DNA from: a phage
DNA: 50,465 nucleotides
Direction: 5' to 3' (one strand)
Sequence record: NC_105618.1
Under the pieces are notes generated by a model. The model had not been told where the DNA came from. It did not search any database and saw only the letters and a list, made by a program, of their open reading frames with translations. Each line of letters begins with the position of its first letter. Position 1 is the stretch's first letter. Made by a program: the position numbers and the translations under genes. This document shows positions 550 through 48,676 of this stretch, piece by piece.

Positions 550-2133
550 ATGGGAGACTTAATCATGATTCAATGGGAAGATCTTAACGCAACGCAGAAG
601 TTAGCGATCAAGAAAATGAGCGAGGCTAATTTCGAAAAAATGATTCGGATCTGGTTCCAGCTTATGCAGGCGCAGCAGTTCCAGCCTAACTGGCATCACC
701 TTTACCTATGTCACGAAGTGGAGGAAATTATTGCAGGGAGACGAGGGAATACAATCTTTAACGTCACGCCAGGTTCCGGTAAAACTGAAGTGTTCTCAAT
801 TCACCTTCCGGTGTACGCAATGCTCAAGTGTAAAAAGGTGCGAAACCTTAACGTGTCGTTTGCTGACAGCCTGGTTAAGCGCAACAGTAAGCGCGTCCGT
901 GAGATTATCAGCAGCAACGAATTTCAAGAGCTATGGCCTTGCAAGTTCGGTACATCGAAAGATGAGGAGATGCAGGTTCTTAACGAAGATGGAAAGGTTT
1001 GGTTTGAGTTGATATCCGCAGCGGCTGGCGGTCGCATTACGGGTTCGCGTGGTGGCTACATGACGCCGGGATTCTCGGGTATGGTAATGCTCGACGATAT
1101 CGACAAGCCTGATGATATGTTCTCAAAGGTTAAGCGTGAGCGTACGCACATGCTATTGAAAAACACCATTCGATCCCGTCGTATGCATAACGAGACGCCT
1201 ATTATTGCAATTCAGCAACGACTACATGCCCAGGATTCAACATGGTTCATGATGAATGGCGGCATGGGTATTGAGTTTGATCAGATCTCAATTCCTGCAC
1301 TGGTGACGGAAGAATACGGAAAGACACTTCCTGATTGGTTGCAGCCTTACTTTGCTCGTGATGTTTTATCGTCTGAGTATGTAGAATTGGATGGCGTTAA
1401 GCATTACTCTTTTTGGCCCAGCAAGGAAAGTGTGCACGACCTGCTAGCTTTACGAGAAGCAGATCAGTATACCTTTGATTCCCAGTATCAGCAGAAGCCG
1501 ATCGCGCTGGGTGGCTCCGTGTTTAACTCAGAGTGGTGGACTTATTACGGCAGCAGCCTTGACGCTGACGAGCCAGATCCGGGTAAATATGATTACCGAT
1601 TCATCACTGCCGATACCGCTCAGAAGACAGGTGAGCTAAACGACTACACGGTATTTTGTTTGTGGGGCAAGAAGAATGATAAGGTTTACTTTATCGACGG
1701 CATTCGCGGTAAGTGGGAAGCGCCGGATATGGAGAAACAATTTACCGCCTTCGTGAATCAGGCATGGAGACACAATAAATCAATGGGCGTGCTTCGTAAA
1801 ATCTACGTGGAAGACAAAGCAAGCGGTACGGGCTTAATCCAGAATCTCAGGAAAAAGACTCCGATCTCTATCACTCCATTGCAGCGTAACAAGGATAAAG
1901 TTACCCGAGCGATGGATGCCCAGCCAGTTATTAAAGCCGGGCGCGTGGTTCTGCCAGAAGAGCACCCCATGCTTGCGGAAATTATCGCGGAACACAGCGC
2001 ATTCACTTACGATGACACTCACCCGCATGATGATATCGTCGATAACTTCATGGATGCGGCGAATATCGAATTACTGACAATTGACGATCCTATCGAGCGA
2101 ATGAAGCGACTCGCCGGGATGGTTAAGCGGTAA
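550..2133 (+). CDS. terminase large subunit
   Basis: Walker A-like VTPGSGKTE, Walker B-like MVMLDDIDK, acidic C-terminal nuclease-like region; start may be ATG 565 (GGGAGA RBS). Confidence 0.85.
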   Translation: MGDLIMIQWEDLNATQKLAIKKMSEANFEKMIRIWFQLMQAQQFQPNWHHLYLCHEVEEIIAGRRGNTIFNVTPGSGKTEVFSIHLPVYAMLKCKKVRNLNVSFADSLVKRNSKRVREIISSNEFQELWPCKFGTSKDEEMQVLNEDGKVWFELISAAAGGRITGSRGGYMTPGFSGMVMLDDIDKPDDMFSKVKRERTHMLLKNTIRSRRMHNETPIIAIQQRLHAQDSTWFMMNGGMGIEFDQISIPALVTEEYGKTLPDWLQPYFARDVLSSEYVELDGVKHYSFWPSKESVHDLLALREADQYTFDSQYQQKPIALGGSVFNSEWWTYYGSSLDADEPDPGKYDYRFITADTAQKTGELNDYTVFCLWGKKNDKVYFIDGIRGKWEAPDMEKQFTAFVNQAWRHNKSMGVLRKIYVEDKASGTGLIQNLRKKTPISITPLQRNKDKVTRAMDAQPVIKAGRVVLPEEHPMLAEIIAEHSAFTYDDTHPHDDIVDNFMDAANIELLTIDDPIERMKRLAGMVKR

Positions 2134-2187
2134 TAAATGAGATATAATCAGGGCTGTCAATTGACGGCCCTTTTTATTGGAGGAAAC

Positions 2188-3471
2188 ATGAAAATTGTTA
2201 AACATGATGGATATAACGATATTTTTAACGGCGGTGCAGATGGATCGCCTAAGCCATTCTTTATGTCTGATGCATCATATCACGTCGGTTCTTTCTACAA
2301 CGACAACGCAACCGCGAAGCGAATTGTGGATGTTATCCCGGAAGAGATGGTGACGGCTGGTTTTAAAATGTCAGGCGTTAAGGATGAAAAAGAGTTCAAG
2401 TCTTTATGGGATAGCTACAAACTTGATTCAAGTCTGGTTGATCTTCTTTGTTGGGCACGACTTTACGGTGGCGCGGCGATGGTGGCAATCATCAAAGACA
2501 ACCGGATGTTAACCAGTCAGGCAAAGCCTGGAGCTAAACTTGAGGGCGTCCGAGTTTACGATCGATTTGCTATCACTGTTGAAAAGCGAGTCACCAATGC
2601 AAGATCCCCTCGCTATGGTGAGCCTGAAATCTACAAGGTATCCCCTGGCGACAATATGCAGCCGTATCTGATTCATCACTCAAGAGTCTTTATTGCTGAT
2701 GGTGAACGAGTAACGCAACAGGCAAGAAAACAGAATCAAGGATGGGGAGCGTCGGTATTGAACAAGTCACTGATTGATGCAATCTGTGACTATGATTACT
2801 GTGAATCTCTGGCTACTCAGATCTTGCGACGTAAGCAACAGGCTGTATGGAAGGTCAAAGGTCTTGCCGAAATGTGTGATGATGATGATGCTCAGTATGC
2901 CGCGCGCCTGCGACTTGCTCAGGTTGATGATAACTCCGGCGTAGGCCGTGCGATCGGTATCGATGCTGAGACTGAGGAATATGACGTTCTCAACTCTGAT
3001 ATCAGCGGAGTTCCTGAGTTCTTATCAAGCAAGATGGACCGCATAGTCTCCCTGTCAGGGATTCATGAGATTATCATCAAGAATAAGAACGTAGGTGGCG
3101 TATCAGCGAGCCAAAACACAGCGCTTGAGACTTTCTATAAGCTAGTCGATCGCAAGCGAGAGGAAGATTACAGGCCGCTTCTTGAGTTCTTGTTGCCGTT
3201 CATTGTTGATGAGGAAGAGTGGTCGATCGAGTTTGAGCCTTTATCTGTTCCGAGTAAGAAAGAGGAATCAGAGATCACGAAGAATAACGTTGAGTCAGTC
3301 ACGAAGGCTATCACTGAGCAAATCATCGATCTGGAAGAAGCTCGCGACACGTTGCGATCTATTGCCCCTGAGTTCAAACTCAAGGATGGAAATAACATCA
3401 ACATTCGCGAACCTGAAGAAACAACCGAGCCGGAGCCGGGGTTAGGGGAGAAGTTAGAAGATGAAAATTAA
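2188..3471 (+). CDS. portal protein
   Basis: size and position after terminase; GGAGG RBS before in-frame ATG 2188 (track ORF begins 2137); acidic C-terminal tail. Confidence 0.75.
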   Translation: MKIVKHDGYNDIFNGGADGSPKPFFMSDASYHVGSFYNDNATAKRIVDVIPEEMVTAGFKMSGVKDEKEFKSLWDSYKLDSSLVDLLCWARLYGGAAMVAIIKDNRMLTSQAKPGAKLEGVRVYDRFAITVEKRVTNARSPRYGEPEIYKVSPGDNMQPYLIHHSRVFIADGERVTQQARKQNQGWGASVLNKSLIDAICDYDYCESLATQILRRKQQAVWKVKGLAEMCDDDDAQYAARLRLAQVDDNSGVGRAIGIDAETEEYDVLNSDISGVPEFLSSKMDRIVSLSGIHEIIIKNKNVGGVSASQNTALETFYKLVDRKREEDYRPLLEFLLPFIVDEEEWSIEFEPLSVPSKKEESEITKNNVESVTKAITEQIIDLEEARDTLRSIAPEFKLKDGNNINIREPEETTEPEPGLGEKLEDEN

Positions 3472-16645: not shown

Positions 16646-19600
16646 ATGATTCAAAAAGTGATAAGCGGATCGAAAGGCGGTTCACCTAAGCCGCATAAGC
16701 CAGTTGAGATGGAAGATAATCTAATCTCAATCAACAAAATCAAGATCCTATTAGCTGTGTCTGATGGCGAGATTGACGAAACATTCAGCCTAAAGCAGTT
16801 GATGTTTAACTCAGTCCCGGTGCAAAACGAGGATGGCTCATTTAACTTCGAGGGAGTAAAGGCAGAGTTTAGGCCTGGGACGCAGACTCAGGAATATATC
16901 AAGGGGATGGAAGATAGCTCTAGTGAGGTAACTGTAAACCGTGAGGTTACTACAGATAACCCATACACGATCTCAGTAACCAACAAAACGCTTTCGGCAA
17001 TCCGTATCAAAATGTTTATGCCTCGCGGCGTAAGAATTGAGAGCAACGGAGACAAAAACGGCGTTCGAGTTGAGTACGAAGTACAGCAAGCGGTTGATGG
17101 TGGTTCGTTTGAGACTGTTCTCACTGACGTAATCGAAGGAAAAACAATGTCTGGTTACGATCGAAGCAGACGTGTAAACCTACCTAACTTCAACAATCAG
17201 GTGATATTCAGAGTCGTTCGTAAAACTCCAGACTCTAACGACTCGAACGTTGTTGACGCGATTCAGGTAAAGAGCTATGCCGAGGTGATTGATGCCAAAT
17301 TCCGTTACCCTCTGACTGGTCTTCTTTTCGTCGAGTTCGATTCGAAGATGTTCCCAAACCAGTTACCTACGATCTCAATTCGTAAGCGCTGGAAGATTGT
17401 AAACGTTCCGTCAAACTATGATCCAGAATCACGAACTTATAACGGAAATTGGGATGGAACTTTTAAGAAGGCGTGGACTAATAATCCGGCCTGGGTACTT
17501 TATGACCTGATGATTAATCAGCGTTATGGGCTTGATCAGAAAGAGCTTGGAATATCTGTCGATAAATGGGCGCTATATGAGGCGGCGCAATATTGCGATC
17601 AGATGGTTCCTGACGGTAAAGGCGGTACTGAGCCTCGCTACCTTTGCGACGTGATAATTCAGTCACAGACTGATGCGTACAAGGTGATTCGAGATATTTG
17701 CTCAATCTTCCGTGGAATGAGCTTTTGGAATGGTGAAAGCATTTCGGTAATCATCGACAGGCCGCGTGAACCTGCGTACATCTTCACTAATGACAACGTG
17801 GTTAATGGTGACTTCTCCTACACGTTCGCAAGCGAAAAGAGCATGTACACGACGTGTAATGTGATGTTTGATGATGAACAAAACATGTATCAGCAGGACG
17901 TTGAGCCAGTATTCGATCGTGAGGCTACTCTAAGGTTTGGTAACAACGTAACGAGCATTACAGCGATCGGTTGCACACGTCGAAGCGAGGCCAACCGACG
18001 CGGGAGGTGGATTCTGAAAACTAACCTCCGCAGCACTACGGTAAACTTCGCTACCGGACTTGAGGGCATGATCCCGACAATCGGAGATGTTGTAGCAATA
18101 GCTGATAATTTCTGGTCAAGTAACTTAACGATGAACCTGTCAGGGCGTTTGCTCGAAGTATCCGGTAGTCAGATTTTCCTGCCGTTCCGCGTTGATGCTC
18201 GCGCAGGTGACTTTATCATCTTAAATAAGCCCGATGGCAAGCCCGTGAAGCGCACAATCTCAAGTGTTAGTGCGGATGGTAAGACTATAGAGGTTAACAT
18301 CGGCTTTGGCTTTCCTGTGAAGCCTAACACGGTGTTTGCAATTGACCGCACCGACATTGCGTTACAGCAGTACGTCGTGACCAAAATCGACAAGGGTGAT
18401 GATGATGAGGAGTTTACCTACAAGATTACGGCGGTTGAGTACGATCCTAACAAGTATGATGAGATTGATTACGGAGTTAACATCGACGACCGACCGACGA
18501 GCATTGTTGAACCAGATCAGATCCCTAGACCGGAAAATGTGCAAGTGTCCTCAGAGTCTAGAATCGTGCAGGGAATGAGCGTAGAAACGATGATTGTTAG
18601 CTGGGATAAAGTGCCGTACGCAGTTTTCTATGACGTCCAGTGGAGAAAGGATAATGGAAACTGGCAGAACGTCCCGCAGACGGCAAACAAGGAGGTTTAT
18701 GTTGAAGGGATTTACGCTGGAAACTATCAGGTTCGCGTGCGATCAGTAGCTGGTTCCGGAACGACTTCGGGATGGTCAAATATCGTCGCAGCGACGCTGA
18801 CAGGTAAGCAGGGTGAGCCTGGTCGACCGATTAACCTTACAGCTACGGATGACGTTGTTTTTGGTATCCGTACAAAGTGGGGGTTCTCTGATGGTTCTGG
18901 AGATACGGCCTATACAGAATTGCAACAGTCACCGGATGGAACGGTTGATAACGCAAGTTTGCTATCTCTTATTCCATACCCGCAGCATGAGTATTATCAC
19001 TCACCAATGCCAGGGGGGAATATCGTGTGGTATCGAGTAAGAACTGTGGACAGGATCGGTAACGTGTCGCAATGGACTGATTTTGTCAGGGGCATGGCAT
19101 CAACAAACGTTGACGATATAATTGGTGAAATTTCTGTAGATATCGAAAACTCACCTGGTTATAAATGGCTTGTTGAGAATGCCACCGATAACTCGGCACA
19201 GAACGCAGCTAACGCAGAGGCAGCAATCGAAAATGCGTTAGCTAATGATAAAGACGCGATCTACATGAAGAAGGAGAACGGAAAGCGAAAAGCTGAGTAC
19301 ACCAAATCTCTTAAGCTGATTGCTGATGAGACGCAAGCGCGAGTGACGTCGATCGAGCAGTTGAAGGCAAGTTTTGACGATCAGATTAGCGCAAGCAATA
19401 GCGAGTTGCGTGAAGTTATAGCGACCGAGACTGGAGCGATATCGCGTGAAATTGACCAACTCAAGGCTCAGATTGGTGACGATATTCAGGCGAGCTTGAC
19501 AGATATCCGAGAGGCTATCGCAAACGAGACTGAGGCCAGAACTCAGGCCGACTTAACGTTAAACGCGAGGCTTGGAAATAACGAGGCGGCACTTGCTCAA

Positions 19601-20098
19601 AAACTTGACTCTTGGAGTAATGCGAGTTCTACCGGGGCGATGTACGGCGTTAAGCTGGGGCTGAAATACAACGGGCAGGAATACAGCGCAGGAATGGCTA
19701 TGTCCCTGATTGGTTCCGGCGCGGCTGTTAAGGCTCAGATTCTTTTTGAGGCGTCACGATTTGCAATCATGACCGGGATGAATGGAAAGACACAATACCC
19801 GTTTGTTGTTGAGAATGGTCAGGTTATTTTAAGTAGCGCGATCATTAAAAACGGATTCATCACTAATGCTATGATTGGAAACGTTATTCAATCGAATAAC
19901 TTCTCTTCAGGTAGTGCTGGATGGATGGTTAACAAGAATGGATCGGCTGAGTTTAATGCGGTTACTGTCAGAGGCAAACTTTACGCAAGTAACGGTGAGT
20001 TTGCATTCAACGGAACGGGTAATACCGTTCAGATTAACAATAACGGCATCACGGTAAACTTACCTGGTGGCGGGAAAGTTGTAGTGGGGAGGTGGTAA
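16646..20098 (+). CDS. central tail fibre / tail tip protein (lambda J-like)
   Basis: 1150 aa; follows the M-L-K-I-like genes; FN3-like region. Confidence 0.85.
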   Translation: MIQKVISGSKGGSPKPHKPVEMEDNLISINKIKILLAVSDGEIDETFSLKQLMFNSVPVQNEDGSFNFEGVKAEFRPGTQTQEYIKGMEDSSSEVTVNREVTTDNPYTISVTNKTLSAIRIKMFMPRGVRIESNGDKNGVRVEYEVQQAVDGGSFETVLTDVIEGKTMSGYDRSRRVNLPNFNNQVIFRVVRKTPDSNDSNVVDAIQVKSYAEVIDAKFRYPLTGLLFVEFDSKMFPNQLPTISIRKRWKIVNVPSNYDPESRTYNGNWDGTFKKAWTNNPAWVLYDLMINQRYGLDQKELGISVDKWALYEAAQYCDQMVPDGKGGTEPRYLCDVIIQSQTDAYKVIRDICSIFRGMSFWNGESISVIIDRPREPAYIFTNDNVVNGDFSYTFASEKSMYTTCNVMFDDEQNMYQQDVEPVFDREATLRFGNNVTSITAIGCTRRSEANRRGRWILKTNLRSTTVNFATGLEGMIPTIGDVVAIADNFWSSNLTMNLSGRLLEVSGSQIFLPFRVDARAGDFIILNKPDGKPVKRTISSVSADGKTIEVNIGFGFPVKPNTVFAIDRTDIALQQYVVTKIDKGDDDEEFTYKITAVEYDPNKYDEIDYGVNIDDRPTSIVEPDQIPRPENVQVSSESRIVQGMSVETMIVSWDKVPYAVFYDVQWRKDNGNWQNVPQTANKEVYVEGIYAGNYQVRVRSVAGSGTTSGWSNIVAATLTGKQGEPGRPINLTATDDVVFGIRTKWGFSDGSGDTAYTELQQSPDGTVDNASLLSLIPYPQHEYYHSPMPGGNIVWYRVRTVDRIGNVSQWTDFVRGMASTNVDDIIGEISVDIENSPGYKWLVENATDNSAQNAANAEAAIENALANDKDAIYMKKENGKRKAEYTKSLKLIADETQARVTSIEQLKASFDDQISASNSELREVIATETGAISREIDQLKAQIGDDIQASLTDIREAIANETEARTQADLTLNARLGNNEAALAQKLDSWSNASSTGAMYGVKLGLKYNGQEYSAGMAMSLIGSGAAVKAQILFEASRFAIMTGMNGKTQYPFVVENGQVILSSAIIKNGFITNAMIGNVIQSNNFSSGSAGWMVNKNGSAEFNAVTVRGKLYASNGEFAFNGTGNTVQINNNGITVNLPGGGKVVVGRW

Positions 20099-21093: not shown

Positions 21094-21324
21094 TTACCAC
21101 TCCTTAGTTTTGACTGAGATCTTACCGCTAAAGTTGCCCTGATTGTCGTCTGATGAAAGGCCTTTGAATCGCATGTCAACTTCTCCAGCAGGTACTTTCT
21201 TACCGTCAATGAATCGCATCATGCAAGATCCGTAAGCGTAAGTAACACAGTCGCCATTCTTAAGATTCTGAGCGCAACCAGTCAGGATGAACGCAGCGGC
21301 GATAATTGTGATTAACTTTTTCAT
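21094..21324 (-). CDS. small lipoprotein, putative superinfection-exclusion (Cor/Llp-like)
   Basis: signal peptide MKKLITIIAAAFILTGC with lipobox LTGC; about 60 aa mature; directly upstream of putative RBP. Confidence 0.5.
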   Translation of the reverse strand: MKKLITIIAAAFILTGCAQNLKNGDCVTYAYGSCMMRFIDGKKVPAGEVDMRFKGLSSDDNQGNFSGKISVKTKEW

Positions 21325-33648: not shown

Positions 33649-33714
33649 GCGTTGTGTCAAATATATTTGAGGGTTAAAATCAACTCACCTGTTCAAAAAA
33701 TAAATGGTGATATT

Positions 33715-33930
33715 ATGAAAGAGTTTTTAACTGCGGCGACGTCCAGCACTGGCGGTGCTTCACTAGTCGGTGCCGCTACTGGGCAACTTTATATTGCTGG
33801 CGCTACATTCATTTGCTTTCTTCTTTTTGGCGTATGGGGCGCGTACTGGAAGTATCGAGATAGCAAGGCAATCCAGGAGGCGCTAAACGATGGCGATCTT
33901 AATAAGGCGCTTAGGATTAGGGGGCGATAA
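33715..33930 (+). CDS. putative pinholin
   Basis: 71 aa, two hydrophobic segments (Gly/Ala-rich then [15 protein letters not shown]), GGTGA RBS, overlaps endolysin start. Confidence 0.5.
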
Positions 33931-34418
33931 TGGGATTAAAAAATAACGTTATAGGCGCATCGATCGGTGCTGCTTTGACTTTGACACCTACCCTACTGGA
34001 ACGAATCGAAGGTATAGAATACGAGGTTTATTACGATATCGCCGGAGTCCCTACCGTATGCAGCGGAATAACCGGGCCGGACGTCATACCTGGTAAGAAA
34101 TACACTAAGCGAGAATGCGATGCATTACTGATAAAACATATCGGCGTCGCTCAGCGATACGTTGACAAAAAGGTGAATGTTGATATTCCGGTAACGATGC
34201 GCGCGTCACTGTACAGCTTCACTTTCAACGTTGGTACTGGCGCGTTCGGATCTTCTACAATGCTTAAGCTAATAAATCAGAGTAAGCACAAGGAAGCGTG
34301 CAATCAGTTATGGCGATGGGTATACTACTACAACCCAAAAACCAAAAAGCGCGAAGTGTCTAGAGGACTCAAGAGCCGACGCGCTGAAGAATACGCGTAT
34401 TGCGTTAAGGAATTATGA
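33930..34418 (+). CDS. SAR endolysin (T4-lysozyme-like glycosidase)
   Basis: N-terminal Gly/Ala/Ser-rich signal-anchor-release segment; catalytic-region pattern [22 protein letters not shown]. Confidence 0.8.
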
Positions 34419-34819
34419 TGAAACTGAAGAAAACGTGCATTGCGATTGCAGTGGCTTTTGGTGTTATTTCCCTATCCGGTTGCTCGACTGCATCTGCCCT
34501 GAGCGGTTTAATCGGATCTAAACCGGAAGTTACAGCACAAATCGGAGAGGAGAACACAAAGCAATTAGCAGGAGTAACCGCAAAATCCGAAGATAAGCGA
34601 GATGTTAAAGTTGAGAAGTCCAATGTAGGAAAGATTGACTCTTCCTTGAAGAAGTCAATTGAAGTGTCAACAATTAAGGCCAACACGGTTAACGCTGAAA
34701 GCATCACGGTAACAAAATCGGAAAACTGGTACGATGCTATAGTTGGCTGGATTCTCGTTTTTATCGGTCTATTGCTGGTTTATTTTTCACTTCGTAAGGA
34801 CGAAAAAAAGGAGGCTTAG
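34415..34819 (+). CDS. unimolecular spanin (u-spanin)
   Basis: N-terminal lipoprotein signal with lipobox LSGC plus C-terminal transmembrane helix; directly follows endolysin. Confidence 0.7.
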
Positions 34820-40879: not shown

Positions 40880-41014
40880 TTATCGCTTACCCTGACCGTT
40901 GCAGGCTTGGCACGTGATTCTCTGCATTTTCCAGACCCCAGGGACTTCAGTGAATAACGGAACCATGTTAAATCCACGACCAGCACACTGACTACAAACC
41001 TGTTTTACTCTCAT
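40880..41014 (-). CDS. small zinc-ribbon protein
   Basis: 44 aa with CSQC ... CQAC; in-frame ATG 41014 with CCAATCAG-type leader. Confidence 0.35.
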   Translation of the reverse strand: MRVKQVCSQCAGRGFNMVPLFTEVPGVWKMQRITCQACNGQGKR

Positions 41015-41048
41015 TTCTGCTTCCTCTACTGATTGGTTGATGACCAGA

Positions 41049-41092
41049 ACTATACCCTGCCAACATGGATAAGTCGTTAGCAAAAAATGCTA
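41049..41092 (-). promoter_or_regulatory. palindromic-motif promoter module
   Basis: minus strand TAGCA-TTTTT-TGCTA, about 23 nt, TATAGT. Confidence 0.45.
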
Positions 41093-41701
41093 TTCCAATA
41101 ATTGCTCATTATTCCATCAATAGTGGAATAGTTGGAATAATTGCGATCCCGATTGATCTCGAATGATGAAACGTGATTATTGCATGGTGTGCAACAGTTG
41201 GTTGATTTGTTGCTGAGAATGCAATGATTGTGAGAGGGAGGATTTAGTGTTACCCGGTTCGCCTGGTAGTCATCTCCATTTTTAGCAAAAAGTGCTATCG
41301 ATTACACTTTAACTTGTCACGACTGTAATATTTGTCTAGAATCGCCATTGTGACAAAATTACACACTGTGACGCCTCTAAATATACATATAGATATATGT
41401 ATCTATATAATATATATAGTGTTTTTTTTATTTATATATATAGATAATTATATTGTAATAGCTGTGTATAGTTGTCTTACATTGTCTAGCGTACTGTTGG
41501 CATATTTCTATCTGCATGTTTATATATACAGTAATTTTTTGTGAGCTATATATTTCTATAGTGACTCTATACAGCTAGACAAATGTTACACAGCTTAAAA
41601 TTGGCTCGCAGGCGTTGACATATCTGCATTGCGCTGTCACAATGGCAATTGTTGACGCGTTATGACACCATTTACACACGAATAGACAAAGAGGTTATAT
41701 T
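41084..41701. promoter_or_regulatory. AT-rich divergent control region with repeats
   Basis: about 618 bp without ORFs of 60 aa or more; shares TCTATATAATATATATAG and GCTGTGTA..AGTTGTCT blocks with 21325-21851; GGAATA(A/G)TTG repeats. Confidence 0.6.
41283..41297. promoter_or_regulatory. isolated palindromic motif in control region
   Basis: TAGCA-AAAAG-TGCTA with no -10-like hexamer at the usual spacing. Confidence 0.35.
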
Positions 41702-42217
41702 ATGAGCAATACCAATCAGGAATTAAAAATCACCGACATGATTCGACTAACCTGCGACGCAATGTATCGCGACAAAGGCATGAGTGAGTTCTCTTTCGTG
41801 GCTGATGATATGGCCCTGGAAGGCGCGCGATTCTATTTCCGCAATCAGGATGTAAGCGATAGCGATCTTGAGTCTGCCGCTGCCGGATGGGTGGACCAGA
41901 ACCAGGCGGAGGTAGAGAAGCGATTCAAGTCTGCTTTCATCACTCCGATCATCACCCGTCACTTTTGCAAATATGGCAAGGTGGCAAAGGTTAAGGTAGG
42001 CCGAAATGACGCAGCAATCACAATGATAACGGTTATCGTTACAGACGAAGAGGTTCCTGTGAAGAAGCGCCGCAGTCGGAAAAAAGTTAGCCTGGCCGAC
42101 TGCCTGGACTCGTTTGACGTTGATGTTAGTAAGATGGGCGATAGCGAGTTAATGGTTCGCGATGTAAATGAGATCGTGCGCCAGATGAAAGCGCATATCG
42201 AAAAGTGTGGACTGTGA
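41702..42217 (+). CDS. hypothetical protein
   Basis: track ORF, AGAGG RBS. Confidence 0.45.
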   Translation: MSNTNQELKITDMIRLTCDAMYRDKGMSEFSFVADDMALEGARFYFRNQDVSDSDLESAAAGWVDQNQAEVEKRFKSAFITPIITRHFCKYGKVAKVKVGRNDAAITMITVIVTDEEVPVKKRRSRKKVSLADCLDSFDVDVSKMGDSELMVRDVNEIVRQMKAHIEKCGL

Positions 42218-42232
42218 GCACTGAACGGTAAA

Positions 42233-42275
42233 TAGCACTTTTTGTTAAAACCGGATCGGGATGGCTTGGTATAGT
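42233..42275 (+). promoter_or_regulatory. palindromic-motif promoter module
   Basis: TAGCA-N5-TGTTA, 22 nt, TATAGT in hairpin GGGAT...ATCCC. Confidence 0.5.
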
Positions 42276-42306
42276 TATCCCATCGGCAACGAATTAGGAA
42301 ACGAAG

Positions 42307-42501
42307 ATGGAAACGCAAATTGACGTAGTGGTTGTTCAGCGCGATTCAACTCACGAGAAGGGTCTGTTCAAGAAAGGAACCAAAATCACTATCGACCTTG
42401 AGGATATGGTTGCGTATCACTCGGGTCTTACCTGGAATGTGGTGCGAGTTGGCAGCGACTACAAACTCAAAGGCTTTAACACTTACTTTGCTGAGGCTTA
42501 A
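42307..42501 (+). CDS. hypothetical protein
   Basis: track ORF. Confidence 0.4.
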   Translation: METQIDVVVVQRDSTHEKGLFKKGTKITIDLEDMVAYHSGLTWNVVRVGSDYKLKGFNTYFAEA

Positions 42502-42503
42502 TC

Positions 42504-42971
42504 ATGACGACTATCACCGTATTTCTGGCTAAAGATGAATTGGACGGCGAAATGTCATTCTTCGCGTTCGAGCATAAAACCGGATCGCACTGGCACACGT
42601 ACACTCATTACACGGTCATCGCAATTGAGGCTTACGACGGCGATTTCACTGACAAGCTGAGTAATTTTATTGAAGCGGTTAAGGCTGGCGACGGCTGCGA
42701 GTGGAAAGAAGATCATGAAGTTATGCGAATGTATGAGATGATTGATCCGGTTCGCCTTGAGTCTTTCGAGCTTGGTTCTGGCGTGACCATTAAGGTGAGA
42801 AAGTCGGGTGAGTTATTGCCAGGAATGCGTGTGCTGACTGGTTACTCAGGACGTAAGGTATGGCGCACTGTATCCAAGATTCGCCAGCGATCGGCAACAT
42901 GCTACAGCGTATTCTTTGAAGATGGTTGGAATATGATGTCAGGAAGTGAAGTGAAGTATCTCACCAAATAG
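42504..42971 (+). CDS. hypothetical protein
   Basis: track ORF, coupled to upstream gene. Confidence 0.45.
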   Translation: MTTITVFLAKDELDGEMSFFAFEHKTGSHWHTYTHYTVIAIEAYDGDFTDKLSNFIEAVKAGDGCEWKEDHEVMRMYEMIDPVRLESFELGSGVTIKVRKSGELLPGMRVLTGYSGRKVWRTVSKIRQRSATCYSVFFEDGWNMMSGSEVKYLTK

Positions 42972-43011
42972 CACGAATTGTTAAAACAGGATCGGGGTAT
43001 CTTGCTATAGT
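42969..43011 (+). promoter_or_regulatory. palindromic-motif promoter module
   Basis: TAGCA-N5-TGTTA, 22 nt, TATAGT in hairpin GGGGTA...TACCCC. Confidence 0.5.
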
Positions 43012-43049
43012 TACCCCATTGAAACGAGATACCAATCAGAGGAATTACA

Positions 43050-43313
43050 ATGTCAATCGTCAAGAATCGCAAAGCAATCGAAGCTACCCGTCACAACAAG
43101 CAATACGCGATTTTCATCTCCCGCCACTGCTCAAACATCAATGGTGGCGTGCAGTATCGCCGCTATGCAGTGATTGAGCTTTCCCCGTACATTTACAAGG
43201 AGTATCGCGAAGAAAAAGGTAAGTGGGTTGAGATTGAAGGTTTAACGAGTTTCTTGATATGGAATGGTGAATTTCAGGGTTATGACGATATCAGCACTTT
43301 AATTGAGGAATAA
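43050..43313 (+). CDS. hypothetical protein
   Basis: track ORF; CCAATCAGAGGA leader. Confidence 0.45.
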   Translation: MSIVKNRKAIEATRHNKQYAIFISRHCSNINGGVQYRRYAVIELSPYIYKEYREEKGKWVEIEGLTSFLIWNGEFQGYDDISTLIEE

Positions 43314-43319
43314 ATAATT

Positions 43320-43547
43320 ATGCCACGTTACAGCAACCTAACTCAACTAACCCGCGTCAACGGGCACATGATCCCGGCAAAATCCACTCACTACGCAATG
43401 GGCGCAAAACACGGAGTCTATTTCAAGTGGCGCGGTCAATGGAACTTCACGGCGGTGAGTAATTTCTACATGCGCGTTCCGGGCGATGACCCGCAATCGG
43501 TAGTAGAAAACTCAATCGGTGACAACAAGATCGAGGTGATGAAATGA
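43320..43547 (+). CDS. hypothetical protein
   Basis: track ORF. Confidence 0.4.
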   Translation: MPRYSNLTQLTRVNGHMIPAKSTHYAMGAKHGVYFKWRGQWNFTAVSNFYMRVPGDDPQSVVENSIGDNKIEVMK

Positions 43548-43654
43548 ACTTCAATACAATTGCCCTATGGTCTGCCGTCTGGTTCTTCTGCATGGGTCAT
43601 GCCATTGTTGGGATCGTAATCATGTTACTACTGTGTGCCGGAGCTTTTGAATGA
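43544..43654 (+). CDS. hydrophobic micropeptide (36 aa, one TM helix)
   Basis: MNFNTIALWSAVWFFCMGHAIVGIVIMLLLCAGAFE; ATGA overlaps with both neighbours. Confidence 0.3.
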   Translation: MNFNTIALWSAVWFFCMGHAIVGIVIMLLLCAGAFE

Positions 43655-43824
43655 TGCGCATTCTAATTTGCATGATGGCGGCAGTCGCCATAACTATCCT
43701 GGTTGTGTCCGGCTGCGGAGAGGTAAAACAGCGATGCCATGAAACCGGGAACCAGGTTACTACGTTCGTGATGGTCGGCAACGTATTGCTACCAATCACA
43801 TCAAATGAGATCACTTGCGAATAG
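43651..43824 (+). CDS. mini-lipoprotein (57 aa)
   Basis: signal peptide MMRILICMMAAVAITILVVSGC with lipobox VSGC; mature about 35 aa with 3 Cys; not in track. Confidence 0.4.
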   Translation: MMRILICMMAAVAITILVVSGCGEVKQRCHETGNQVTTFVMVGNVLLPITSNEITCE

Positions 43825-43833
43825 GATTTAACA

Positions 43834-44025
43834 ATGGCTGATTTTATGCACCAAATGATTGCAGTATTCAAAGGCAGTGATGATGAGGAAGTTAAAGAGT
43901 GCTTTACCGTTGACAAGCCTTATAACGCGTCACTAACCAGCTTCGGGAATATCTCATTGCTTGATGATAATGGCGATCCCTGGATATTCGACGAAGACAC
44001 TGATTGCTTCGAGATTAAAGAATAG
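43834..44025 (+). CDS. small acidic protein
   Basis: 63 aa, Asp/Glu-rich. Confidence 0.35.
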   Translation: MADFMHQMIAVFKGSDDEEVKECFTVDKPYNASLTSFGNISLLDDNGDPWIFDEDTDCFEIKE

Positions 44026-44066
44026 CACTTTTTGTTAAAACTCAATATTGGGGTTGCGATATAGTA
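44024..44066 (+). promoter_or_regulatory. palindromic-motif promoter module
   Basis: TAGCA-N5-TGTTA, 22 nt, TATAGT. Confidence 0.5.
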
Positions 44067-44096
44067 ACTCCATCGACAACGAACGAGGACGAGAAC

Positions 44097-44585
44097 ATGA
44101 AAATCAAATTACTTTGCACTGGCGGTTACAAAGGCTTTACTCGCGACCTGGAAGCGGACCCTATCGTGGTTGACGCTGTGAAGTGTGATGATAGCCTGGG
44201 CGGCTACCGCGTTAATGTTGACGACCTGGTTAAAGCTGGCGTGTACGATCTGGATTATGGACTTTCGGTTAGCCCGGTAGTCGGCCCGGCAGATTTCAAC
44301 GAGAAGGACGGAACGATGTTCTTTTTCGATCGGGAAGTCCAGGCAAACATCAAGCCTCGCAAGGTTCGACTTCTCAACAATGGCGGTTATCCTATGCGAC
44401 CAGGTTATGAGAATCGCACGTTCCCGGTGATTGTTGACTTTGAAGAAATCACCGCGCACTTAGCTTATATCAACGGTGAACAGCTTAATGCTGTTGGATT
44501 CGTGGGAGGCATGAATCAAGAGGCGCTATGCTTCTTCCACTGTAAAGCCGAGCCGTTCGATATTGAGTGTGAGTTAGTATACTAA
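44097..44585 (+). CDS. hypothetical protein
   Basis: track ORF; N-terminus MKIKLLCTGGYKG resembles repeated small-domain family. Confidence 0.45.
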   Translation: MKIKLLCTGGYKGFTRDLEADPIVVDAVKCDDSLGGYRVNVDDLVKAGVYDLDYGLSVSPVVGPADFNEKDGTMFFFDREVQANIKPRKVRLLNNGGYPMRPGYENRTFPVIVDFEEITAHLAYINGEQLNAVGFVGGMNQEALCFFHCKAEPFDIECELVY

Positions 44586-44626
44586 GCACGAATTGTTAAA
44601 AGGGGATTTGGCCTGACTGGTATAAT
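44584..44626 (+). promoter_or_regulatory. palindromic-motif promoter module
   Basis: AAGCA-N5-TGTTA, 22 nt, TATAAT in hairpin GGGGAT...ATCCCC. Confidence 0.5.
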
Positions 44627-44657
44627 CCCCTACATCAACCACTAAGAGGAAGTCATT

Positions 44658-45164
44658 ATGTTGAGATTAGAAGATGTCAAATTCCCGATCAAATTTATCA
44701 GCTTTGGTTTCGGTGAAATTACGTTCATCAATGAAGGCAGGGGTACATGGGCCACTGAGGAAGTATCTCAGCTTAAGCTGGAATGGTTTATTGACAGGCA
44801 CAACGAAGTGAATAAAGAAAATTCACCAAATAAGGACTACCACTACATTATGAGTGACGGCCGGGATTCGTACAGCATGTATGATAATTGGAAGTTGGAA
44901 GGTTCAATATTCAACGGTGTAAAACCAGAAATCAAGCCGACGCTACAATGCACTCAGATCGAGAACATGCCATTGAGCGCTACGCTAAAAGGTGTCCAGC
45001 TTGATAGCGAATCCTGGCTTGAAATTACCGCCACACCGAAAACTATTGAGGCGCACGACGATATCATCACGCTGTTGCTGCATCACGGCGGTTTCAAGTA
45101 TAAGACGTTATCAGGTGAAATCAGCATTAAGCGCGGAACGCTTGTCCGCTACGAGGTGAAATAG
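44658..45164 (+). CDS. hypothetical protein
   Basis: track ORF, GAGGAAG RBS. Confidence 0.45.
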   Translation: MLRLEDVKFPIKFISFGFGEITFINEGRGTWATEEVSQLKLEWFIDRHNEVNKENSPNKDYHYIMSDGRDSYSMYDNWKLEGSIFNGVKPEIKPTLQCTQIENMPLSATLKGVQLDSESWLEITATPKTIEAHDDIITLLLHHGGFKYKTLSGEISIKRGTLVRYEVK

Positions 45165-45228
45165 TGAGCAATTGGCATAACGAACATGTAATGCAGTTTT
45201 ACCGTAATCGCATCAAGAAAGTTTTGAA

Positions 45229-45271
45229 TAGCACGAATTGCTAAACCTTCCGCAAGGCCATTTGATATAGT
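45229..45271 (+). promoter_or_regulatory. palindromic-motif promoter module
   Basis: TAGCA-N5-TGCTA, 22 nt, TGaTATAGT in hairpin AGGCCA...TGGCCT. Confidence 0.5.
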
Positions 45272-45310
45272 GGCCTTATTGAAGCAGGGCAACCAATCAG
45301 AGGAATCATC

Positions 45311-45598
45311 ATGAGCAAGAATCATAAGTTAAAAATTGCCCCGGTCCATTTCATCGGTGTAATGAACGGCACCAAAACGGCAGAGTTCCGCATCAATGAC
45401 CGCAACTTCCAGGTTGGTGATATCCTTGAGCTACGAGAGTTCGATCGCGATGAGTTTACCGGGTGGGAAGTTCACGCTAGGGTATCCGATGTTACAGACG
45501 TGACTCCTTACATCGATCGCGGGTATGACGAGCAACAGTGCGACTTCACGCAGTACGTGATGTTATCAATCAAACCTTACAGATGGGTTAGACCATGA
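45311..45598 (+). CDS. hypothetical protein (possible ASCH/PUA-like fold)
   Basis: 95 aa; pattern AEFRINDRNFQVGDILELRE; assignment by pattern only. Confidence 0.35.
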   Translation: MSKNHKLKIAPVHFIGVMNGTKTAEFRINDRNFQVGDILELREFDRDEFTGWEVHARVSDVTDVTPYIDRGYDEQQCDFTQYVMLSIKPYRWVRP

Positions 45599-46233
45599 AA
45601 TTTGAGTGCGTATCAAGTAGCGGATCTGGTTTCAAGTGTGGTAAGGTCTACGAAGGCGCTAGCGTCAATGACAATAGCTTCGTTATCACGGATGAGCGAG
45701 GTAGAAATGTTAACGTTGTCCGGCGTCACGAATACCAGGAAATATTCCTGCCGTATTGCGGTAGCTCAAAATATATCTTCCATCGAATCGTAGATGGTGT
45801 TAAATTTAAAGACGTAATCGAAGCAATCAACCAACTGCATAATAAAGAGGTAAAATTTATGAAATTCGAATGTATCAGTGATAACACCAAAAAATTTACC
45901 GTTGGCAAAATCTACGACGTGCCTACTGAGCACGCAAAGCACACTGTAGCGCTGACCGACGACACGGGCCGCCACCGCATTGCAACCGTAACGCACAACG
46001 GTGAAGGTCTTCGCTGGAATAGCGGCGGCACTAAGTTCGCAACTTTCGGCAAAAAGCGCAAGCGTACTTTTTGCGTAAATGGCAAGGTTGCAGCAAACAA
46101 GATCCACAACGTCAAGCCGTCGGAAGTTGACCGTAAGCCAGCACTGAAGTTTGAAGAGAAAGCGGATTTGTCTGGCCTAGCTATCGCTCTTGTTCTCCTG
46201 GTCGCTTCGATTTCGCTGATGTTCATCATGTAA
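45595..46233 (+). CDS. membrane-anchored protein with internal tandem duplication
   Basis: two MKFEC(V/I)S...GK(V/I)Y repeats then C-terminal TM helix LSGLAIALVLLVASISLMFIM. Confidence 0.45.
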   Translation: MKFECVSSSGSGFKCGKVYEGASVNDNSFVITDERGRNVNVVRRHEYQEIFLPYCGSSKYIFHRIVDGVKFKDVIEAINQLHNKEVKFMKFECISDNTKKFTVGKIYDVPTEHAKHTVALTDDTGRHRIATVTHNGEGLRWNSGGTKFATFGKKRKRTFCVNGKVAANKIHNVKPSEVDRKPALKFEEKADLSGLAIALVLLVASISLMFIM

Positions 46234-46240
46234 TTTTAAC

Positions 46241-46274
46241 GGGGAATCGGCTCTGAGCGGTTCCCCTTTCTTTT
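46241..46274 (+). terminator. intrinsic terminator
   Basis: GGGGAA...TTCCCC hairpin then TTTCTTTT. Confidence 0.55.
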
Positions 46275-46286
46275 GGAGAAAACACT

Positions 46287-46397
46287 ATGCCAGACTTTTC
46301 CAACTGGAATAACGAGCCGCCATCATTTCATGAGTTGCTATTCTGCCTCCTGGTCCTGACATTATCTCTTAAGGGTGTTTTATGGCTACTATCATGA
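46287..46397 (+). CDS. possible hydrophobic micropeptide (36 aa)
   Basis: GGAG RBS; MPDFSNWNNEPPSFHELLFCLLVLTLSLKGVLWLLS; approximate coordinates; competes with track ORF 46382-46600. Confidence 0.2.
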   Translation: MPDFSNWNNEPPSFHELLFCLLVLTLSLKGVLWLLS

Positions 46398-46584
46398 CAG
46401 CAGAAGATGCAGCGCTTGACGCAGTGGAAGGAATGCGCCCAAATACCTCCAGAATCGCACACTACTACAAATCTGAGGTGTCGGCAGTGCAATTGGTCCA
46501 CGAAATTTTAAGGCTCCCACAAGTCGATTCAGCGCGCGTGGTGACGTGCTTAAAAAATTATTTTTGCATCACTATTAAAACGAA

Positions 46585-46627
46585 TAGCACGAATTGCTAA
46601 AACCTATCAAGGGGAATGCGCTATGAT
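46585..46627 (+). promoter_or_regulatory. palindromic-motif promoter module
   Basis: TAGCA-N5-TGCTA, 22 nt, TATGAT in hairpin GGGGAAT...ATTCCCC. Confidence 0.5.
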
Positions 46628-46657
46628 TCCCCTACACCAAAAAACGAGGGAACACTC

Positions 46658-47104
46658 ATGAAACATTTGATTTGCATTGAAACACCTAACGATGAATACA
46701 CCCTGCACGGCATCGGAATGTTCAAAGGTCACTACATGACAGCAAGTATTTATGATGCGCGTCGCGGCGATGGCGATCTGATGATTACCTCAAAAGAGGT
46801 TAATCCGTACATCATGCAGAATCTTGGAAATAACGAATATATGGCCTACGGCTGCAACGCGGTGTATAAGCATATCAAGATCCGCAAGCGTGTCGTGCGA
46901 TCATTCAAGAAAATTGCAATGAAACACTGGAAGATGAGCAAGAAAGATGCCGGACATTGGGCGCGTGACGTTGCATATTCATACTTCTACCGTAACGGCG
47001 AATCCTGCTACTTTCTGATCGATGAACTTATGGAAAACTACGGTGGCGACTTCAGTCAGGGTAGCTTTGATGACTGGGCCAACTATGAGATCAGTTGCTG
47101 GTAA
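46658..47104 (+). CDS. hypothetical protein
   Basis: GAGGGA RBS before in-frame ATG 46658 (track start 46616 lies inside promoter module). Confidence 0.45.
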   Translation: MKHLICIETPNDEYTLHGIGMFKGHYMTASIYDARRGDGDLMITSKEVNPYIMQNLGNNEYMAYGCNAVYKHIKIRKRVVRSFKKIAMKHWKMSKKDAGHWARDVAYSYFYRNGESCYFLIDELMENYGGDFSQGSFDDWANYEISCW

Positions 47105-47147
47105 TAGCACGAATTGCTAAAACTTGCTCAAGGGTATTTGATAGAAT
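47105..47147 (+). promoter_or_regulatory. palindromic-motif promoter module
   Basis: TAGCA-N5-TGCTA, 22 nt, TAGAAT in hairpin. Confidence 0.5.
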
Positions 47148-47186
47148 GCCCTTCGTTGAGTTAAGCAACCAATCAGAGGAATTACT

Positions 47187-47390
47187 ATGAAAACTATTAA
47201 CGGAATGAGCAACGAAACGAGAACGCAGATCGTTAACATGCTAATCGGTATGGCTGACGATATTCAGAATAGCCAGGTCGTTATTGATTCATGCAATCAG
47301 ACTCGCGAGAGTAAATTTGAATCATCCGGCTACAAAATTGTTGAAGAAGAATTAACCATCAAAATCATTCGCGTACAGGAGAAAGCATAA
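47187..47390 (+). CDS. hypothetical protein
   Basis: track ORF; CCAATCAGAGGA leader. Confidence 0.4.
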   Translation: MKTINGMSNETRTQIVNMLIGMADDIQNSQVVIDSCNQTRESKFESSGYKIVEEELTIKIIRVQEKA

Positions 47391-48031: not shown

Positions 48032-48604
48032 ATGAAAACAGCTATCATTTTAAACGGTGCGCCTGGTGCGGGAAAAGACACTATAGGGTGCATCCTGGCT
48101 GACACTTACGATCATGTAGCGCTACGCAGCTTTAAAGCTCCAATGTTTGAGATTGCCCGAGCAATCTTGGGTGAGACTAATTTCGAGTATTTCATGTTCT
48201 TGTATGAGGACCGTCGCTATAAAGAAGAGCCAGCATCAATCCTGAACGGTAAAAGCCCACGCCAGTTTATGATCTGGATTAGCGAGGAGGTCATCAAGCC
48301 GCAGTTCGGAAATCGCTTCTTCGGTATGCGAGCGGAAAGCAAGGTGAAAGAGTCGCACTCCCTTTCGGTATTTACTGACGGTGGATTCAAAGATGAGATC
48401 CTACAAATGATTGAAGGTGATATCCAGGTTAAGCTATGTCGAATCCATCGCAACGGTTGCAGCTTTGATAACGACAGCCGAGACTATATCTATCTTGACG
48501 ATATGATCGGGGTCAACGGTTATCAGGAATGTGACTTCTTTTCTGTCGAAGGCCATCCAGAAATTACCGCTCAGCACATAGCCGCCACGTTCATCAACAA
48601 GTAG
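48032..48604 (+). CDS. P-loop kinase (polynucleotide kinase or dNMP kinase-like)
   Basis: Walker A GAPGAGKDT. Confidence 0.6.
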   Translation: MKTAIILNGAPGAGKDTIGCILADTYDHVALRSFKAPMFEIARAILGETNFEYFMFLYEDRRYKEEPASILNGKSPRQFMIWISEEVIKPQFGNRFFGMRAESKVKESHSLSVFTDGGFKDEILQMIEGDIQVKLCRIHRNGCSFDNDSRDYIYLDDMIGVNGYQECDFFSVEGHPEITAQHIAATFINK

Positions 48605-48644
48605 CACGAATTGCTAAAACGTCGGTGGGGTGATTTGATATAGT
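48602..48644 (+). promoter_or_regulatory. palindromic-motif promoter module
   Basis: TAGCA-N5-TGCTA, 22 nt, TGaTATAGT. Confidence 0.5.
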
Positions 48645-48676
48645 TACCTCATCGACAACGAAGAGAGAAAATCGAA

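Follow-up and report, generated by a model that had tools for sequence, protein, structure and literature searches.

The phage genome record NC_105618.1 (50,465 nucleotides, the whole stretch of DNA analysed, referred to here as the window) carries two overlapping open reading frames (ORFs) of 36 and 57 amino acids (aa), which are genuine coding genes and for whose products targeting to the cell envelope is well supported. The first encodes a single-pass membrane micropeptide, and the second a lipoprotein precursor whose mature part is predicted to form a single lipid-anchored beta-hairpin. The reading favoured here, with a rough probability of 35%, is that this membrane-tethered hairpin binds a conserved envelope target, leading either to receptor-independent exclusion of secondary infection or to the inhibition of an envelope machine. 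Both genes have orthologs in phage T1:

43544..43654 (+), gene of the 36-aa single-pass membrane micropeptide, ortholog of T1 ORF73; matches phrog_25570 over its full length (E=3.6e-27); translation MNFNTIALWSAVWFFCMGHAIVGIVIMLLLCAGAFE
43651..43824 (+), gene of the 57-aa prolipoprotein, ortholog of T1 ORF72; matches phrog_8628 over its full length (E=4.7e-28); translation MMRILICMMAAVAITILVVSGCGEVKQRCHETGNQVTTFVMVGNVLLPITSNEITCE

An earlier note on this DNA had placed both ORFs at these positions and described them as chained by ATGA overlaps, which was borne out by the ORF list and the raw sequence. ATGA stop/start overlaps connect a 75-aa ORF to the 36-aa ORF (43544-43547) and the latter to the 57-aa ORF (43651-43654), and both junctions are kept in 18 of 19 related sequences, the exception being the second junction of Shigella phage vB_SsoS_008. 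Each start codon is preceded by a Shine-Dalgarno (SD) sequence:

43533..43536 (+), SD sequence GAGG, 7 nucleotides (nt) before the ATG of the 36-aa ORF; kept in 19 of 19 aligned relatives
43640..43643 (+), weak SD sequence GGAG, 7 nt before the ATG of the lipoprotein gene; GGRG or GGTG in relatives

The second SD sequence varies because it is embedded in Gly-Ala codons of the micropeptide gene. Its weakness, combined with the ATGA overlap, suggests that ORF73 and ORF72 are translationally coupled by termination and reinitiation.

Selection was evaluated by means of pooled Nei-Gojobori estimates obtained from 15 to 17 distinct relatives. In the annotated frame, the ratio of nonsynonymous to synonymous substitution rates (dN/dS) was 0.07 for the 36-aa ORF and 0.16 for the 57-aa ORF, the latter being composed of 0.14 for residues 1-22 and 0.19 for the mature part; values for the flanking genes were 0.18 (75-aa DUF7274 gene) and 0.09 (63-aa ORF). 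Four of the five other frames yielded values between 1.1 and 3.4, and the codon-aligned antisense frame yielded approximately 0.3, which is the expected mirror of the constraint on the sense strand. Both ORFs are intact in 17 of 19 aligned relatives. Since the low dN/dS values are specific for the annotated frame, both ORFs are under strong purifying selection at the protein level, and the comparison of synonymous and nonsynonymous sites, named in the earlier note as a possible refutation, came out in favour of coding. Annotation of this genome should not discard ORFs below 60 aa, which are genuine genes here. The notion that the two are chance ORFs that are never translated is practically negligible: in its favour, the ORFs have very little length and the lipobox rule by itself does not reach significance, with 9 hits in the window versus 4.3 ± 2.6 in shuffled sequences, but the in-frame dN/dS values effectively refute it, and the conserved start signals and remote homologs with the same architecture also speak against it.

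The sequence of vB_SsoS_008 (MK335533; L019, 1179-1873) contains many small indels across the aligned region, by which ORF74, ORF72, and others are broken. It was left out of the selection analysis because these indels look like sequencing or assembly error rather than biology. On the opposite strand, a 98-aa ORF (43620..43916) was rejected as coding, as the antisense dN/dS values exceeded 0.9 except for the codon-aligned frame (approximately 0.3).

The pair as such had been described before. In the T1 record AY216660, ORF73 (1992..2102, AAP49927) and ORF72 (2099..2272, AAP49928) are each annotated with a ribosome-binding site, ORF73 bears the remark 'single transmembrane domain predicted N-in and C-out', and the notes of the record cite the 2004 genome paper. 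Identity to the T1 proteins amounts to 86% for ORF73 and 88% for ORF72, with the same order, the same overlaps, and the same flanking DUF7274 gene, and both matched PHROGs are unassigned regarding their function. The T1 pair falls within a 2.8-kb repeat region marked in another T1 record. Several relatives annotate both genes and some only the 57-aa gene, and the ORF72 ortholog of Shfl1 carries the automatically assigned UniRef name 'Lipoprotein'. The novelty attributed to the pair in the earlier note was, therefore, overstated, since the ORFs described as missed had only been missed by an ORF track with a 60-aa cutoff and are annotated coding sequences in T1 and many of its relatives. The present analysis adds a selection test, a model of the hairpin, remote homologs that have a lipobox, variants with a transmembrane (TM) anchor, the finding that ORF72 is independent of the receptor module, and its natural knock-outs. 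The pair belongs among the small envelope lipoproteins and membrane micropeptides of phages and represents a modest lead, not a discovery.

The 36-aa peptide is hydrophobic from approximately residue 6 to residue 35, with a best 19-residue Kyte-Doolittle mean of 2.49, and features one acidic residue (E36) and no basic residue. Together with the T1 annotation, these values are consistent with a single-pass membrane peptide, as had been proposed. The gene was identified in 55 phage records by tblastn against phages, its distribution being derived from this search, the PHROGs, and the loci gathered for the lipoprotein.

For the 57-aa protein, the following parts were predicted:

43651..43713 (+), signal peptide, residues 1-21; unusually conserved
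43705..43716 (+), lipobox codons V19-S20-G21-C22; the codon of Cys22, the predicted lipidated residue, is 43714-43716
43735..43818 (+), beta-hairpin predicted by AlphaFold2, residues 29-56; strands 29-42 and 45-56 with a Gly43-Asn44 turn

The PROSITE rule PS51257 comprises the pattern [LIVMFWSTAG]2-[LIVMFYSTAGCQ]-[AGS]-C, the absence of D, E, R, and K from the six preceding residues, a Cys at position 15-35, and K or R within the first seven residues. ORF72 complies with all of these clauses (Arg3, ...VAITIL-VV-S-G-C22), and the rule likewise picks this genome's u-spanin and Cor-like protein. The best 19-residue Kyte-Doolittle mean of the ORF72 N-terminus is 2.66. As judged from the sequence, the earlier description of a lipoprotein precursor with the lipobox VSGC and a mature part of about 35 aa with three Cys thus holds; the predicted mature peptide has 36 residues (C22-E57), with Cys at positions 22, 29, and 56.

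Two AlphaFold2 runs on different alignments predicted a helix corresponding to the signal peptide (residues 2/3-19/20), a short linker, and one beta-hairpin, the predicted local distance difference test (pLDDT) values being 79-91 over residues 31-50 in the second run. Cys29 starts the first strand and Cys56 ends the second one, and a disulfide between them probably staples the open end of the modelled hairpin. These two Cys, Gly43 in the turn, and Pro48-Ile49 are conserved down to homologs at 37-39% identity. The hairpin tip TFVMVGNVLLPI is strongly hydrophobic on both faces, which is directly visible in the sequence. Because the linker between the lipid anchor and Cys29 consists of only six residues, the hairpin would have to work at the membrane surface. 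Moreover, the hairpin is almost invariant, whereas the residues right after Cys22 are variable, which points to a conserved target rather than to an arms-race partner.

To place ORF72 within a family, a single-sequence search of 5.8 billion proteins was evaluated, which returned 22 clusters, nearly all of them at >79% identity. Four proteins of 58-65 aa (P0024, P0025, P0026, and P0030) were added as remote homologs by a profile search of 1.84 billion representatives and a subsequent search based on an alignment; they feature unrelated signal peptides, each with its own lipobox (LAAC, VTGC, LAGC), and retain the core Cys...T.Y[VI]M.G..[LM]VPI...E.VC. Both P0024 and P0026 match phrog_8628, P0024 additionally matching phrog_15073; otherwise, P0024 matches only the Tunavirus genes, and P0026 is without a match in isolated phages. 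The contigs encoding these remote homologs, one of which is 91 kb long, have a guanine-cytosine (GC) content of 57-68% and carry same-strand arrays of tiny overlapping genes without Pfam domains; they look like non-structural regions of phages. Assignment of a host failed, as the nearest isolated relatives of a neighbouring gene belong to Microbacterium and Xanthomonas phages at approximately 30% identity. Neither a search of 185,579 species genomes of bacteria and archaea nor one of 5,426 complete genomes of E. coli yielded a relative of ORF72, and the family, therefore, appears to be narrow and confined to phages. An origin from the host, i.e., a moron captured from bacteria, was rejected on the basis of the same searches. 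Klebsiella weberviruses have the DUF7274 gene in common with the window, but no such pair follows it.

Two further features were noticed on contigs with remote homologs. Upstream of P0030 (L030, approximately 2240-2499), where no gene was called, a reading frame with a lipobox-like signal peptide (...AAILGAALLTGCAESEV...) is present, possibly representing a second, uncalled small lipoprotein gene. On the 91-kb contig (L025, 6165-7724), consecutive small proteins end in ...ATAEGSK, ...ATAERGDQ, ...ATAEGSEQ, and ...ATAERGEG; these near-identical C-termini imply that the DNA at the gene junctions contains a conserved motif, perhaps one used in common for translation initiation or regulation.

The lipobox Cys22 is kept in nearly all T1-like copies, the exceptions being P0021, P0028, and DELF2. 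In P0021 (...AVIIIILSYDD...) and P0028 (...VVALGYGE...), a plain hydrophobic anchor takes the place of the lipobox, the hairpin is kept, and the signal-peptide core persists as ILICMMAAVA in the former and as the near-identical ILIAMMAAVA in the latter. Because these variants swap the lipobox for a TM anchor and retain the hairpin, the conserved unit appears to be a membrane tether plus hairpin. Divergent T1-like loci without a lipobox are L022 (1609-2014, Logan DRR001793) and L038 (146-435, ENA ERZ15185043).

Knock-outs of ORF72 that arose in nature or in the laboratory were also found, namely a 4-bp insertion causing a frameshift in EF3-1 and the substitution Cys22Phe in DELF2. Furthermore, a 49.9-kb metagenomic T1-like genome (L032, 3001-3312, ENA MUNK18 scaffold_96; also L033) carries a natural 2.25-kb deletion (window-equivalent 43782-46029) that removes the hairpin and, at a short homology, joins the first 37 residues of ORF72 to the C-terminal portion of a 212-aa protein. 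In this genome, ORF74 (DUF7274) has an in-frame stop and ORF73 is intact. It follows from the frameshift, Cys22Phe, and deletion variants that ORF72 is dispensable, and the module is non-essential for phage viability. In the window, the 212-aa protein is encoded at 45595-46233 (+); it has a C-terminal TM tail (LSGLAIALVLLVASISLMFIM) and is apparently internally duplicated, with MKFEC... at residue 1 and again near residue 89.

According to the reading favoured here, the ORF72 precursor would enter the established route of lipoprotein biogenesis (Sec export, Lgt, LspA, and Lnt), i.e., it would be exported by Sec, cleaved before Cys22, and lipidated. The mature 36-residue peptide would then be tethered to a membrane on its periplasmic side by the linker of about six residues, with the hairpin presumably oxidised by DsbA. 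Held at the membrane surface, the hairpin would be the effector and would bind some conserved component of the host envelope, e.g., by contributing an additional strand to a beta-sheet or groove that lies exposed, so that the envelope of the infected cell is changed. The purpose would most probably be to exclude secondary infection at a step independent of receptor identity (DNA entry or energisation), the inhibition of an envelope machine being the alternative, and the micropeptide would be a frequent, co-translated inner-membrane partner that is not strictly required. An effect after adsorption or on an envelope machine is favoured because the gene is independent of the receptor type and a receptor-specific lipoprotein already exists in the phage. 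By analogy with known systems, the role in a second superinfection-exclusion or envelope-remodelling module that the earlier note had considered is plausible.

Several observations weigh against this reading. The pair has no homology to any characterised protein in the PHROGs, Pfam, NCBIfam, and PDB searches, those of Pfam, NCBIfam, and PDB sequences returning signal-peptide noise only, and Foldseek found no match at E<1 in the PDB for the hairpin model, which is expected for a bare hairpin. A search of the literature by topic and locus tag found no study of ORF73 or ORF72. The confidence of the AlphaFold2 model is moderate (mean pLDDT 70-72), and its register sets Cys56 opposite residue 31, not 29. 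With its Cor-type lipoprotein, the phage already has a protein for exclusion. In L022, the lipoprotein homolog directly follows DUF7274, leaving no room for a micropeptide, and the homologs of L025/L030 and L037 have soluble-protein upstream neighbours and no TM micropeptide; because of these absences, a joint mechanism is not required. Finally, the sorting of the lipoprotein is ambiguous, as the TM-anchored variants P0021 and P0028 can sit only in the inner membrane, and, at the position after the lipidated Cys (+2), most copies carry Gly, some have Val or Ser, and IME18 has Asp, Asp+2 being the Lol-avoidance (inner-membrane retention) signal of E. coli (PMC5727369). Given these mixed +2 residues, sorting is either not critical or not uniform. 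Partial retention with Gly+2 was reportedly observed for reporter lipoproteins by Seydel et al. in 1999 and Terada et al. in 2001.

Regarding the question of whether the two genes form a unit, ORF72 and ORF73 were each found in 55 GenBank phage records with identical organism breakdowns, and they co-occur in all 55 Tunavirus records. On the divergent contig L038, a 36-aa homolog of ORF73 (MNFNILAFWAAMWFFVVGHVLVGAIVLILLCAGAFE) overlaps the lipobox-less ORF72 variant. Similarly, on L036 (856-1154, JGI Ga0307504_10050448, 68.5% GC), the P0024 gene overlaps by GTGA a 41-aa single-TM gene that is supported by an AAGGAG SD sequence and by the periodicity of GC content at third codon positions (GC3). 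As an obligate unit, the pair is only partly supported: the association is upheld by the 55 records, by L038, and, analogously, by L036, but the lipoprotein occurs without a TM micropeptide in the three other lineages named above, and the micropeptide is a frequent, not an obligatory, partner. The idea that TM-anchored variants dispense with the micropeptide (fusion or fission), which had been prompted by L022, was refuted by L038, where both are present. It was also observed that the 41-aa gene of L036 overlaps (ATGA) the gene of a small two-TM protein, resulting in a chain of small membrane proteins similar to that in the window.

A possible, though clearly less probable, explanation that is orthogonal to function is that the two are independent small membrane proteins, being neighbours in a packed operon in which the ATGA overlaps reflect genome compaction. 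Irrespective of which genes are involved, overlaps of 4 nt are indeed common both in this genome and on the remote contigs, and independence would account for the homologs of L022, L025/L030, and L037 lacking the micropeptide, for the deletion variant L032, in which the micropeptide is intact and the lipoprotein destroyed, and for an unrelated 36-aa TM micropeptide of the window that overlaps a different gene (46287..46397). It is harder to reconcile with the perfect co-occurrence in 55 records, the persistence of the pair in the divergent L038, the overlap of a TM micropeptide gene with a homolog in the compositionally unrelated L036, and the position of the weak SD sequence of ORF72 inside ORF73.

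Exclusion lipoproteins of a different kind are well documented. Llp, Cor, and Rtp45 are small periplasmic lipoproteins excluding phages, Rtp45 binding LptD partly via a shared beta-sheet (PMC12685063, PMC9586334), and the documented exclusion lipoproteins of this phage family adjoin the receptor-binding gene (PMC13164509, PMC12685063). The corresponding loci of the window are as follows:

16646..20098, central tail fibre J gene (receptor-binding locus), the pair being located at 43.5 kb
21094..21324 (-), Cor-like lipoprotein at the tail-fibre locus; phrog_4281

That ORF72 is such a receptor-masking outer-membrane lipoprotein, acting against a second outer-membrane receptor, is improbable. It is of a similar size class to the known examples of 6-7 kDa (PMC12685063, PMC9586334) and has a lipobox, Cys residues, and beta structure, and its +2 residue, mostly not being Asp, would be expected to result in outer-membrane sorting in E. 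coli. However, BLASTP produced no alignment of ORF72 with T1 Cor or with the Cor-like protein of the window, no Cor match was obtained from PHROGs (phrog_1119), Pfam, or NCBIfam (NF047972 lamb_exclu_cor), and the PDB gave no sequence or fold match. In addition, the TM-anchored and Asp+2 variants would reside in the inner membrane. The receptor loci of T1 and of this phage are differently built, and their receptor-module lipoproteins are 42% identical over 52 aligned residues, the identity being concentrated in a near-identical signal peptide, yet ORF72 is 88% identical between the two phages. Because it lacks similarity to Cor, is located away from the receptor-binding gene, and shows no co-variation with the receptor module, ORF72, if an exclusion factor, would not be of the receptor-masking type.

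As regards the receptor module itself, the protein encoded at 21094-21324 (-) and T1 Cor (L031, 5624-5851, -) have their first 16 aligned residues (KKLITIIAAAFILTGC) in common, extending through the lipobox Cys, and their mature domains differ (phrog_4281 versus phrog_1119), which suggests that receptor-module lipoproteins are exchanged by recombination within the region coding for the signal peptide.

Instead of excluding other phages, the pair may serve host takeover or counter-defence. In this case, the hairpin, the micropeptide, or both would inhibit an envelope protein of the host to the advantage of the phage itself; candidates would be an abortive-infection or defence sensor embedded in the membrane, a sensor of envelope stress, or a machine assembling the cell wall or the outer membrane. 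The near-invariance of the hairpin implies a conserved host target here as well. This alternative is unlikely, but credible. The pair resides in a dense array of small genes beside nucleotide-metabolism genes, annotated as presumptive early in relatives (PMC11447400), it is accessory and sometimes lost, as is typical of host-interaction genes, and the remote homologs are likewise found within arrays of tiny genes without an assigned function. On the other hand, PHROG, Pfam, and NCBIfam searches revealed no similarity to known anti-defence or takeover proteins, and the sequence alone does not separate this alternative from the exclusion model.

A more far-reaching form of the favoured reading is doubtful: ORF72 would be the founder of a family restricted to phages and comprising the smallest phage lipoproteins known, in which a single lipid- or TM-tethered, disulfide-stapled hairpin with a hydrophobic tip acts as a genetically encoded 'beta-strand plug'. 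The plug would be inserted into a conserved envelope machine or would add a strand to it, e.g., at the lateral gate of a barrel in the outer membrane or on the periplasmic side of an apparatus for DNA entry or energy transduction. With the TM micropeptide as co-factor, this would provide receptor-independent exclusion or shut-down by a mechanism that differs from those of Cor, Llp, and Rtp45.

T1-like phages are commonly used in the laboratory and in therapy, yet no function is known for the majority of their small non-structural genes. Should the hairpin indeed bind a conserved protein of the envelope, the Drexlerviridae would possess a second, receptor-independent layer of superinfection exclusion, and a minimal peptide scaffold of about 28 residues directed against an envelope machine from the periplasm would be of interest for peptide-mimetic inhibitors. 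If ORF72 is without a phenotype, it represents one more conserved accessory gene.

Concerning the genomic context, the region 43000-44400 of the window matched 63 phage records in a megablast search, all of them Escherichia or Shigella T1-like siphoviruses (Tunavirus, Drexlerviridae), the closest being IME18 and UP30 at approximately 90% identity. The gene order of the window is T1-like and comprises terminase, morphogenesis, central tail fibre J, recombination/replication, and lysis cassette, followed by a long plus-strand array of small genes. Within this array, the pair belongs to a five-gene cassette (43050..44025) with a copy of an intergenic repeat on both sides, its other members being:

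43050..43313 (+), 87-aa ORF with which the cassette begins; corresponds to T1 ORF75 in position; phrog_11449
43320..43547 (+), 75-aa DUF7274 gene (T1 ORF74); Pfam PF23939, E=7.5e-40; ATGA overlap of its stop with the 36-aa ORF start
43834..44025 (+), acidic 63-aa ORF with which the cassette ends; phrog_11551; T1 itself lacks it

This arrangement, with the repeats described below, fits expression of the cassette by host RNA polymerase within the small-gene region, and the timing of expression, as far as it can be inferred from this region, would be early. A search of 41000-47500 against Rfam yielded no RNA family, and for this reason an explanation at the RNA level was dropped. Scans for sigma-70 and terminator consensus sequences showed no enrichment over shuffled sequence and were, therefore, not used to define operon boundaries. 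The second 36-aa single-TM micropeptide gene of the window, mentioned above (46287..46397, +; MPDFSNWNNEPPSFHELLFCLLVLTLSLKGVLWLLS), is the ortholog of T1 ORF67, is unrelated to ORF73 in sequence, and overlaps the next gene (46382..46600) by 16 nt.

The intergenic element is approximately 60 nt long, and a repeat search (families D1-D3) identified at least eight copies between 42.2 and 48.7 kb, by which cassettes of small genes are delimited:

42225..42286 (+), intergenic element copy
42961..43022 (+), copy opening the five-gene cassette, with the conserved box AATAGCACGAATTGTTAAAAC plus hairpin; putative promoter/terminator
44015..44076 (+), copy closing the cassette, identified from the repeat families and RNAalifold
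44576..44647 (+), intergenic element copy
45221..45282 (+), intergenic element copy
46577..46648 (+), intergenic element copy
47097..47168 (+), intergenic element copy
48594..48655 (+), intergenic element copy

The conserved box of the element, AATAGCACGAATTGYTAAAAC, also written AATAGCACGAATTG(T/C)TAAAAC, is followed by a variable 8-bp hairpin, for which RNAalifold indicated compensatory changes at 5 of 8 pairs across the eight copies. This hairpin carries a TGN-TATAGT extended -10-like motif, and ACCAATCAGAGGAATTAC(A/T)ATG follows three of the copies. In relatives, the equivalent sites are variously annotated as promoters or terminators, and a comparable 21-base intergenic repeat was described for phage TLS (PMC11447400).

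Among known systems, the spanins (lambda Rz/Rz1; the u-spanin gp11 of T1) resemble the pair in that a membrane peptide gene is followed by an overlapping gene of a small lipoprotein. The phage has a complete lysis cassette of its own:

33652..33930, holin
33930..34418, endolysin
34415..34819, Rz-like/u-spanin; phrog_1804, E=1.8e-47

The earlier statements that a lysis cassette with its own u-spanin lies elsewhere and that the pair is probably not the spanin are consequently supported, because this set is complete and ORF73, regarded as an i-spanin, lacks a periplasmic (coiled-coil) domain after the TM segment; moreover, the pair has no spanin match in PHROGs or Pfam. Considered as a holin or pinholin, ORF73 is without a charged hydrophilic C-terminal tail and a PHROG lysis match, and it is located outside the lysis cassette. 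An auxiliary lysis function, in the form of a second spanin-like or holin-modulating pair, is very improbable: the overlapping genes of an inner-membrane peptide and a lipoprotein superficially recall i- and o-spanins, but holin, endolysin, and u-spanin are all encoded 9 kb away, the 36-aa peptide has no domain that could bridge the envelope, and the pair is found among small non-structural genes.

With Cor (T1, phi80, and N15), Llp (T5), and Rtp45 (Rtp), ORF72 shares the property of being a small phage-encoded lipoprotein on the periplasmic side, and Cor and ORF72-type proteins are both present in the same phages. It differs from them in the absence of sequence similarity and in its mature peptide, which is about half the size of Llp or Cor.

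Systems acting after adsorption include Imm and Sp of phage T4, an early inner-membrane protein and a membrane-tethered periplasmic protein, which block secondary infection independently of the receptor. Unlike the pair studied here, they are encoded by non-adjacent genes and do not include a lipoprotein; with 83 and 97 aa, they are also larger, and there is no homology between the two systems. The lipoprotein Ltp of Streptococcus phage TP-J34 and gp15 of HK97 are likewise membrane-anchored at the outer face of the cytoplasmic membrane, where they block DNA injection; in contrast to ORF72, they are prophage-encoded, much larger, helical, and unrelated in sequence.

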